Below, one piece after another: positions 28,489 through 30,697 of a stretch of DNA of 64,000 bases. This stretch comes from Pseudomonadota bacterium (GTDB lineage Bacteria; Myxococcota_A; UBA796; SXON01), in the NCBI GenBank assembly GCA_039800105.1, contig JBDLRI010000078.1, positions 6,469-70,468 on the forward strand, given 5' to 3'. The first letter of the stretch is position 1. Every line of letters starts with the position of its first letter. The translations under genes were made by a program, and so were the position numbers. The notes beneath the pieces are model-generated. The model did not search any database. It saw only the letters and a list, made by a program, of their open reading frames with translations, and had not been told where the DNA came from.

Positions 28489-29577
28489 GTGCGGCGGGCC
28501 GCCGCGCTGGCCGGGGGACTCGCGATCGCGCTGGCACTCATGGAGGGGGCGGCGCGGTGGGCCGGCCCACCTCCGGGGCCCGCAGCCGTGCCGCTGCTCC
28601 GGGGAGGTCTGACCGCGCCCGGGGAGCACCGCCTCCGCACGTCGGAGTTCGACGTCACCGTCCACGTGAACGCCGACGGCTTCGTGGACCGTGACTGGCA
28701 CGGGACGTCCGCATCCGACGTCGCCGGACCGCGCCGGGTCATGCTCATCGGCGACTCCTTCGTACAGGCCGCCCAGGTCCCGCTCGAAGCCGGGTGGGGG
28801 CGGCGCCTCGAGCAGGCCGCGGGAGACGCGGGGGGAGCCGCCGTGGAGGTGCGCTCGCTGGGGGTGCCCGGCGCCGGCACGGCCACCGCGCTGGAGCTGC
28901 TGTCCCGCTACGGTCCCGCGTACCGCCCCGACGTGGTCCTGCTGGCGTTTCTCGTCGCCAACGACGTGCTCAACAACCACCCGCTGCTGGAGGAGAAGGA
29001 CGACAAGCCCTTCTACACGCTGCAGGCGGGGCGGCTCGTGCGCACCGACGCGCTCACCCGCGCGAGCGTCCTGCCTCGATGGCTCGCACGCAGCGCCGCC
29101 GCCACGTGGGGATGGCGTGCCTGGAACGCGCGTCGCAGGGTCGCCGCGAAGGTGGCCCATGGCCGCGGGATGCCCATCGATCTGCGGGTGCATGACCCGG
29201 CGTCCAGCCCCGTGTGGGAGGAAGCGTGGGCGGTGTCCGAGGCGCTGGTGGCCGCGATGTCCGGGCGTGCCCGGGCGATGGGGGCACGGTTCGGTGTCCT
29301 CCTCGTGCCCGATGGTCCGATGTCGAATGACCGCGACCGTGACCGTGCCACGGCACGATGGCCCGCGGCGGCGGGATGGGACTTCGGCGCGGCCCAGCGT
29401 CGCGCGCAGGCGATGGCGGGACGACACGCGCCGACCTGCGACCTCCTGCCGGCGCTGCACGGTTCGCCCGAGAGCTACTTCGCGCTGGACGGCCACTGGA
29501 CCACGGAGGGCCACGCGCGCGCGGCGCGGGCCACCGCCGCGTGCCTGGCGGCGTGGCAGCGTGAACGGCCCGACTAG
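28489..29577 (+). CDS. SGNH/GDSL-type hydrolase or acyltransferase (AlgX/AlgJ-like)
   Basis: GTG start 1 nt after the rSAM stop. Block I VMLIGDSFV and a late DGHWT (DxxH-type) block; N-terminal TM/signal. Its TAG stop lies inside the left inverted repeat of the 29574-29775 element. Confidence 0.6.
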   Translation: MRRAAALAGGLAIALALMEGAARWAGPPPGPAAVPLLRGGLTAPGEHRLRTSEFDVTVHVNADGFVDRDWHGTSASDVAGPRRVMLIGDSFVQAAQVPLEAGWGRRLEQAAGDAGGAAVEVRSLGVPGAGTATALELLSRYGPAYRPDVVLLAFLVANDVLNNHPLLEEKDDKPFYTLQAGRLVRTDALTRASVLPRWLARSAAATWGWRAWNARRRVAAKVAHGRGMPIDLRVHDPASSPVWEEAWAVSEALVAAMSGRARAMGARFGVLLVPDGPMSNDRDRDRATARWPAAAGWDFGAAQRRAQAMAGRHAPTCDLLPALHGSPESYFALDGHWTTEGHARAARATAACLAAWQRERPD

Positions 29578-29775
29578 CAGGCTGCTGAAAAACCATCACC
29601 GGCTGCGGCGGCGCCCCGCGCTACTGCGTCCGACGTGCTCGCCTGCGACTCGCTCGACCTGGCTTCGGCCATGCCTTCGCTCGTCTCGGCTCCGCGCGCC
29701 GCCCTCGTGACGCGCCGGGCTTGCCTCGCTCGGCGCTGGCAGGGAGGGCCAGGGCCTTTTTCAGCAGCCTGCTAG
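29574..29775. mobile_element. MITE-like element with perfect 19-bp terminal inverted repeats and TA flanks
   Basis: CTAGCAGGCTGCTGAAAAA (29574-29592) is the exact reverse complement of TTTTTCAGCAGCCTGCTAG (29757-29775). The 164-bp G/C-rich core has no credible ORF. Sits between two convergent genes. Confidence 0.5.
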
Positions 29776-29945
29776 GCGGCGTCGCGGGCGGGGGTGCGCT
29801 TCGGGCCGGTCCGCGCCTGGGACGCCCAGTCCTGGATGAGGGTGGAGGTCGCCAGCGCGGCGAGCTCCGGATCGCCATGGACGGCGAGCATGCGCGCGTA
29901 GATGGCGTGGACAACGTCTCCGACCTGCAGCGTTCGACGGGTCAT
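29772..29945 (-). CDS. hypothetical small protein (57 aa)
   Basis: Strong RBS GGAGGAG 7 nt upstream of ATG 29945 and good GC3. Its stop TAG lies inside the right inverted repeat. The longer track ORF (to 30134) lacks an RBS. Confidence 0.45.
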   Translation of the reverse strand: MTRRTLQVGDVVHAIYARMLAVHGDPELAALATSTLIQDWASQARTGPKRTPARDAA

Positions 29946-30046
29946 CGAGGGCTCCTCCGGCGGGCGTGTGCCTGCCTTCTTCATCATGGACACCGTTCGC
30001 ACCGGCCGCTGTAAGGCTTCGTCACCGACGGTCGGGGCGGGTCCCG

Positions 30047-30697
30047 TCACGCCGCGAGGAGGCGGCCCCGCGCGGCCGCGACGACCAGGAGGTCCACCCG
30101 TGCGGCCCCGGCCTGCAGGAGCACCGAGGCGCACCCGTCCGCCGTGGTGCCCGTGGTGAGCACGTCATCCACGAGCAGCACCCGGCCCGAGGGTGCGGCC
30201 CGCGTCCGCCAGCGTGTCGTGGGGTCGTCGGCCCGTTCGCGGCGGGTCCGTCCCGCCTGTGCGCGCAAGCCCACGCGCCGAAGGGCGTCGACCCGCGGTG
30301 CACCGATCGTGGCGGCCGTCGCGTGCGCGAGGATCGCGGGCAGGGAGGCGCCGCGTGCCCAGGTGCGAAGCGGGTGCGACGGGACCGGGACCACCGCGTC
30401 GTACAGCCCCGCCAGCGGTGCTGCGGCGCGGGCCAGTCGCTCGGCGAGCATGTGGCCGGTGGCCTCGTCGCGTCCGTACTTTGCGGTGCGGACCAGCTGT
30501 CCGGGCAGGCCTGCGTAGTCCCCGAGGGTCCACGCGCCGCCGCAGCACGCGGGTGCCTGTGGAAGCCGTTCCAGTCGCGACGGGAGCTGAGCGTCGCACG
30601 CCTCGCACACGCGCGCGTCCGGTGCGGTCGGGGTTTCGTCCACCGCGTCGCAGGCCACGCAGCGGGTCGCGTCGAGGGCGGCCAGCCAGGAGAGCAT
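30047..30697 (-). CDS. comF: ComF-family phosphoribosyltransferase-fold protein
   Basis: N-terminal Cys pairs (CVAC...CEAC) and PRPP-binding loop VLLVDDVLTTGTT. ATG 30697 inside ORF 30047..31594. Confidence 0.75.
   Translation of the reverse strand: MLSWLAALDATRCVACDAVDETPTAPDARVCEACDAQLPSRLERLPQAPACCGGAWTLGDYAGLPGQLVRTAKYGRDEATGHMLAERLARAAAPLAGLYDAVVPVPSHPLRTWARGASLPAILAHATAATIGAPRVDALRRVGLRAQAGRTRRERADDPTTRWRTRAAPSGRVLLVDDVLTTGTTADGCASVLLQAGAARVDLLVVAAARGRLLAA

Follow-up and report, generated by a model that had tools for sequence, protein, structure and literature searches.

A roughly 15-copy miniature transposon with the terminal repeats of IS5-family elements lies between the stop codons of two convergent genes

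Several families of miniature transposons (MITEs) are known in bacteria, among them the Correia elements of Neisseria, RUP, and Nezha and Chunjie of the cyanobacteria. Like the element described here, they are short, non-coding and multicopy, are bounded by terminal inverted repeats (TIRs) and a target duplication, occupy intergenic DNA, can fold into long hairpins and can overlap the ends of genes. Correia and other Tc1/IS630-type MITEs duplicate the dinucleotide TA, as does IS630 itself, which prefers CTAG as its target, whereas the present element is flanked by a duplication of the full CTAG and is assigned to the IS5 family.

For IS5, the target YTAR and a 4-bp duplication are documented (PMC5009759). 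Elements of this group, including E. coli IS5, ISAzs10, a copy in M. extorquens AM1 and others in many MAGs, share the 4-bp YTAR/CTAG duplication with our element and make up a clade that crosses phyla, and the terminal repeats are likewise similar (CAGGCTGCTGAAAAA here, the variant CAGGCCGCGGAAAAA in ISAzs10). In contrast to those elements, however, ours measures 194 bp, is without a transposase and has a core unlike the interior of the long elements past the TIR. It resembles the IS630/Tc1-mariner MITEs in the TA at its junctions and in a CTAG-like target preference, although its family shows a 4-bp rather than a 2-bp duplication and a cognate transposase of the DDE_Tnp_1/DUF772 type rather than DDE_3. 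Literature searches on the TIR string, on ISAzs10 and on CTAG-targeting MITEs at stop codons returned nothing specific. The MITE family is new, while its kind, an ordinary mobile element of the IS5 family with a YTAR/CTAG target, is known.

The window, by which we mean the whole stretch of 64,000 nucleotides that was analysed, comes from a MAG of 3.6 Mb (G000; 160 contigs, 88.7% complete, 73.3% GC). Its features are collected in Table 1. The arms at 29574-29592 (CTAGCAGGCTGCTGAAAAA) and 29757-29775 (TTTTTCAGCAGCCTGCTAG) are perfect inverted repeats of 19 nt that enclose a core of 164 bp, as an earlier note on this DNA had described and as both the sequence and repeat finding confirm. A 16-mer taken from the arm occurs at just these two sites in the 64-kb window, where none is expected from 100 dinucleotide-preserving shuffles. 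The repeat finder lengthened the arms to 23 nt at 96% identity; this extension was rejected as chance, since the alignment of copies (A1) shows the added 4 nt to belong to flanks that are unrelated. Without the duplicated target, the element spans 29578-29771; it is 194 bp long and has TIRs of 15 bp, and the apparent 19-nt repeat arises from the 15-nt TIR together with the palindromic CTAG of the duplicated target.

Table 1. Features of the locus and copies of the element in the source MAG (coordinates are those of the window unless a contig is named)
Feature	Position	Strand	Remarks
Window	C78:6469-70468		source MAG G000
SGNH/GDSL hydrolase gene, 362 aa	28489..29577	+	ORF; Pfam Lipase_GDSL_2 and ALGX; GC3 0.88
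Left target-site duplication copy, CTAG	29574..29577	.	duplication length inferred from related elements
Left terminal inverted repeat, CAGGCTGCTGAAAAA, 15 nt	29578..29592	+	perfect reverse complement of 29757-29771
Weak terminator-like hairpin, mirror image, into left TIR	29613-29597	-	consensus scan
Non-coding MITE core, 164 bp, GC-rich	29593..29756	.	copies 94-99% identical
Weak terminator-like hairpin, 5-bp stem, then T-run of right TIR	29736..29761	+	consensus scan
Right terminal inverted repeat, TTTTTCAGCAGCCTG on the plus strand	29757..29771	-	pairs with left TIR
Right target-site duplication copy, CTAG	29772..29775	.	holds CTA 29772-29774
Small conserved gene, 57 aa from ATG	29772..29945	-	ends in right CTAG
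Complete copies	C78, C72, C132, C7, C40, C153		
Copies truncated at a contig end	C14, C95, C156, C81, C139, C107, C121, C117, C82		
Internally deleted derivatives, both ends kept	C110:36404-36483; C65:25483-25526		about 77 bp; about 41 bp

Each end of the element abuts the stop codon of a gene. The SGNH gene terminates at TAG 29575-29577 within the left CTAG, and the 57-aa gene, whose ATG form starts at 29945, terminates on the minus strand at CTA 29772-29774 within the right one; both stops had been placed there from the letters alone, and both placements hold. The 57-aa protein (MTRRTLQVGDVVHAIYARMLAVHGDPELAAL...) has no match in Pfam or NCBIfam, and of the 33 genomes of its taxonomic family 32 have one homologue each. 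Contigs from two independent metatranscriptomes lie over the gene (29758-29954 and 29804-29946), the first of which runs from 29954 through the stop and into the right arm. With homologues across the family and with these contigs, the 57-aa ORF is a real gene for a conserved small protein.

The 202-bp block is one copy of a mobile miniature transposon that is present roughly 15 times. The MAG holds six complete copies, about 10 partial ones at contig ends and two deletion derivatives; copies are 94-99% identical, and the complete copy on C72 likewise lies at a contig end. When the six complete copies were aligned (A1), the terminal 4-mers marked the exact limits of identity, beyond which the flanks were unrelated, which bears out the reading of the block as a MITE-like mobile element. 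Summed contig depth on the element in two lake metagenomes was about 10-25 times the depth of the flanks, which fits 10 to 20 copies. The whole element is absent from 40 related genomes, in which chance-level fragments alone were found; an Rfam scan of 29000-30400 at E <= 1 gave no match, and Pfam gave no signal within the element.

The MITE is a major cause of fragmentation of the MAG assembly. Ten contig boundaries fall inside it, at the ends of C72, C14, C156, C139, C121, C117 and C82 and at the starts of C95, C81 and C107, and some of the truncated copies are probably two halves of a single insertion. Both mini-derivatives, on C110 and C65, consist of a left TIR and a right end reading ...GCCTGCTAG, and the one on C65 still provides the TAG stop of a 213-codon ORF. 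Two further places in the MAG begin like the TIR and continue into unrelated sequence, namely C45:36543-36572 (GCAGGCTGCTGGAAAACCATCCCCGGC; 160 bp from the contig end and without CTAG) and C110:13554-13596 (CTAGCAGGCTGCTGAATCGCCATC); either could be a remnant or mark the end of another element. Contigs of run X7 (one of 838 nt; depths 13-36), matched to L003 1501-1533, carry the first ~31 nt of the MITE followed by TGACTTCGCCATCCCCTGCTGCGG..., a junction that was found neither in the MAG nor in the metagenome contigs searched for it. They represent a sibling element or a longer relative from another lake population.

The earlier note had placed the element in the IS630/Tc1-mariner family, an assignment that did not survive comparison with other genomes. 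No IS630-type DDE_3 transposase (PF13358) was found in the MAG, and an element with the same TIRs encodes an IS5 transposase. A scan of about 186,000 species genomes for TAGCAGGCTGCTGAAAAA returned at least 120 loci, and those listed fall in Acidobacteriota, Alphaproteobacteria, Nitrospirota, NC10, Myxococcota, Dehalococcoidia, Planctomycetota and other groups. In many phyla the 15-mer TIR, exact or with one mismatch, terminates IS5-family elements. Pairing of the ends in the listed loci, for which a relaxed core pattern was used, gave 60 loci with +/- TIR pairs 70-390 bp apart (MITEs) and 14 with pairs 1.2-1.8 kb apart among the matches listed. One long element that was examined (L102 6065-7609) encodes a 385-aa protein that scores 260.7 bits against NF033581 (IS5-family transposase; cut-off 140) and also matches DUF772 and DDE_Tnp_1. 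The host of this 1.5-kb element is a Rhodospirillales MAG, and downstream of the transposase lies a second ORF (L102 7220-7588, 122 aa) with no Pfam or NCBIfam match.

The same ends recur closer to the source organism and, as variants, in named elements. G005, a genome of the MAG's own taxonomic family, carries a 1.34-kb element that has the same ends and encodes a transposase sharing 51% identity with the L102 enzyme. The closest named relative, found through annotated plasmids, belongs to Azospirillum sp. B510 and carries the RefSeq annotation 'IS5-like element ISAzs10 family transposase' (~60% identical); its element reads TTAG-CAGGCCGCGGAAAAA...TTTTTCCGCGTCCTG-TTAG, and a copy in Methylorubrum extorquens AM1 reads CTAG-CAGGGTGCTGCAAAA...CTGCAGCAGCCTG-CTAG. 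Past the 15-nt repeat, the ends of the window MITE, the long elements, ISAzs10 and the AM1 element diverge. A different MITE of ~185 bp with the same terminal sequence is represented by seven ends in G096, a genome of another family in the same order; the two MITE cores align with a score of 24 against 19.6 +/- 2.7 for shuffles (maximum 32), which is not significant. At one G096 locus (L030, G096:C6, ~1497-1720) CAGGCGGCTAG comes immediately after the right CTAG and resembles the stub of a second element end. We consider it very probable that 29578-29771 is a non-autonomous MITE with the TIRs of a widespread IS5-family clade and a 4-bp CTAG/YTAR duplication.

The length of the duplication bears on how the two stop codons came to be preserved. 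At a CTAG target, a TA duplication around an element that begins with G and ends with C and a CTAG duplication around an element that begins with C and ends with G yield the same sequence, so that only targets other than CTAG discriminate. Among the matches listed, the flanking 4-mers of the long elements are identical in 11 of 14 cases (CTAG seven times, CTAA three times and TTAG once) and one letter apart in the remaining three, and the MITE pairs with identical 4-mers number 23 (20 with CTAG/CTAG and three with CTAA/CTAA); the flanks of ISAzs10 are TTAG/TTAG. These matched CTAA/CTAA and TTAG/TTAG flanks argue for a 4-bp YTAR duplication, because a duplication of TA would require the terminal base of the element to vary together with its flank. 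The TA target-site duplication proposed earlier is therefore not upheld. Nor is the associated claim that a terminal G and C of the element regenerated the stops on insertion: the G and the C are themselves part of the duplicated CTAG target, and both stops are restored automatically.

Within the source MAG the picture is less uniform. CTAG flanks the window copy at either end, and four of the six complete copies have imperfect pairs (GTAG/CTAG on C132, and CGAG/CTAG, CTAG/CTCG and TTGG/CTAC), so that the MAG copies alone would leave TA and CTAG unsettled. Decay within the duplicated TAG is confined to ends at which that TAG serves no gene as its stop (C7 left, C40 right, C82 and C153 left), whereas at the stop-bearing ends of C132 left and C153 right the outer C alone is altered and the stop is intact. 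Such changes fit decay under GC pressure that is restrained by selection on real stops.

Two other accounts of the element can be set against the reading as an IS5-type MITE. An IS630/Tc1-mariner-type MITE with the sequence GCAGG...CCTGC, inserted with duplication of TA, would account for the TA that stands at the predicted place in every intact end, as the earlier note's proposed check on other copies had anticipated, and it needs slightly fewer post-insertion mutations than the CTAG model for the MAG copies, for example at C132 (GTAG/CTAG). However, the MAG is without a DDE_3 transposase, the transposases examined in L102, G005 and ISAzs10, whose TIRs are the same or close variants, are all of the IS5 family, and the CTAA/CTAA and TTAG/TTAG flanks would demand that the first and last bases of the element co-vary with its surroundings; we regard this account as very improbable. 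Still further from the evidence is the suggestion that the element is a non-mobile intergenic sequence native to the locus, such as a regulatory RNA or a protein-binding palindrome. The fact that no empty site appeared in any data set examined would agree with it, but the existence of about 15 near-identical copies with unrelated flanks refutes it, and the absence of the element from the 40 relatives, the lack of an Rfam match at E <= 1 and terminal sequences held in common with transposase-bearing elements likewise speak against it, leaving it practically no chance of being correct.

The state of the site before insertion can be reconstructed. Removal of the element together with one CTAG gives ...GGCCCGA-CTAG-GCGGCGTC..., an empty site of CCCGACTAGGCGGC. 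The earlier reconstruction (CCCGA-CTAG-GCGGC, with a single palindromic CTAG serving both genes) is correct under either duplication model. We infer both this pre-insertion state and the transposition chemistry. An IS5-clade transposase of the DDE type, supplied in trans, would have bound both CAGGCTGCTGAAAAA ends; the target would have been the single palindromic CTAG that held the overlapping stops of the SGNH and 57-aa genes, where a 4-bp staggered cut at CTAG (YTAR) followed by gap repair could have left CTAG on both sides. Such an insertion would have altered no protein and moved the gene ends 198 bp apart, and both stops would survive automatically, since the whole tetranucleotide is duplicated.

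Joined through a single CTAG, the flanks of the window locus would read ...GGCCCGACTAGGCGGCGTC..., and several data sets were searched for this state. The homologues of the SGNH and small genes lie on different contigs in G001, of the same genus, and in G006, and the SGNH proteins of these genomes are only 51-56% identical; G001 is too divergent and non-syntenic, and neither genome is usable as a comparator for the empty site. The empty-site pattern with wobble positions freed had 0 matches in the metagenome contigs. In four lake DNA runs (X1, X2, X3 and X5) all contigs lead from the flank into the element and none skips it, and for a second copy (C132) coverage in four other DNA runs was too thin to distinguish a filled from an empty site. 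The mobility of the window copy is thus argued for by evidence at the level of the family. As for a source of transposase, a search of the 88.7%-complete, repeat-broken MAG for an IS5-type enzyme (L102 query, NF033581) gave no match, and the only matches to the G005 IS in the source metagenomes were fragments of ~80% identity, at a depth below that of the MAG. The MITE family may be an orphan in the source organism; alternatively, its partner may be missing from the assembly or have diverged beyond detection.

The position of the insertion at stop codons can be considered in the light of the CTAG sites available in this genome. CTAG is 18-fold under-represented in the MAG, with 470 sites where base composition predicts 8,621, and the dinucleotide TA is likewise under-represented, by 2.5-fold. 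Gene-like ORFs were defined by at least 60 codons, GC3 of at least 0.82, GC3 above GC1, and GC2 lowest, and numbered 2,796; they end in TGA (68%), TAG (30%) or TAA (2%), and the base before a TAG stop is G in 62% and C in only 25%. The 451 CTAG sites outside MITE copies comprise 188 (42%) that are the stop of a gene-like ORF, 153 inside an ORF and 110 elsewhere. Twelve of the 188 are stops on both strands at once, where convergent genes overlap by 4 bp, which is the arrangement reconstructed for the window locus before insertion. At the MITE ends, 11 of 24 (46%) adjoin a strictly defined gene stop, and two more do so under looser criteria (that of the window 57-aa gene and that of a contig-truncated ORF on C7); at several copies neither visible side adjoins one. 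Against the per-flank background of all CTAG sites (22%) this is an enrichment (p = 0.011), whereas against CTAG sites not internal to ORFs (34%) the difference is not significant (p = 0.20). Target availability and the loss of intragenic insertions therefore suffice to explain the enrichment, and neither a stop-seeking mechanism nor a selected function is needed. In the loci listed across phyla, an ORF of 100 codons or more in the stop frame adjoins 58 of 152 ends (~38%), and the two control frames give 14 and 31. The association with stops can be put down to a YTAR target that holds a stop triplet on both strands, to the scarcity of CTAG and to selection against intragenic insertions.

A further possibility is that the element, a MITE by origin, has been retained at gene ends for a function, as a bidirectional terminator or insulator that separates convergent genes or as a structured, mRNA-stabilising 3' UTR. 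On both strands it forms a long hairpin closed by the TIRs, with a folding z of -3.7, and a consensus scan for terminators detected three sites where 0.2 were expected, with a small hairpin and a T5 run just inside the TIR on each strand and reading outward. The metatranscriptome contig that passes the small gene's stop into the right TIR (29758-29954) and the presence of the insertion in every population sampled could also be taken in favour of such a role. The hairpins are weak, however, with 5-bp stems; the frequency of stops is not above that at non-intragenic CTAG sites; MITEs of another genome that have the same TIRs have an unrelated core, so that no core function is conserved; and several copies adjoin no gene stop on either visible side. 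Retention for a function is accordingly an unlikely explanation. At its centre the family consensus also contains the hairpin CGTGGC-TTCG-GCCACG (29658-29673), whose loop is of the UUCG type. Two private changes of the window copy, 29659 G>C and 29672 C>T, fall in the same base pair of this hairpin and break it, and a contig of run X5 that spans the window locus has the consensus letters at both positions.

In summary, the analysis names the repeat family at which at least 10 contigs of the MAG end and corrects its assignment from IS630 to IS5. The occurrence of two convergent stops in the ends of one element is an automatic outcome of the duplication of a palindromic 4-bp target, and the location of ~38% of the clade's listed ends at gene stops illustrates that insertions are guided to neutral sites by the target sequence together with the composition of the genome. 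It is conceivable, though we think it rather doubtful, that the YTAR/CTAG specificity of the IS5 clade amounts to a 'safe-harbour' strategy and that some copies have then been taken over as spacers or terminators that separate convergent genes. Since the target is a stop triplet on both strands and is duplicated whole, an insertion exactly at a single stop, or at one shared by convergent genes, would alter no protein, and in GC-rich genomes nearly half of the available targets are stop codons.
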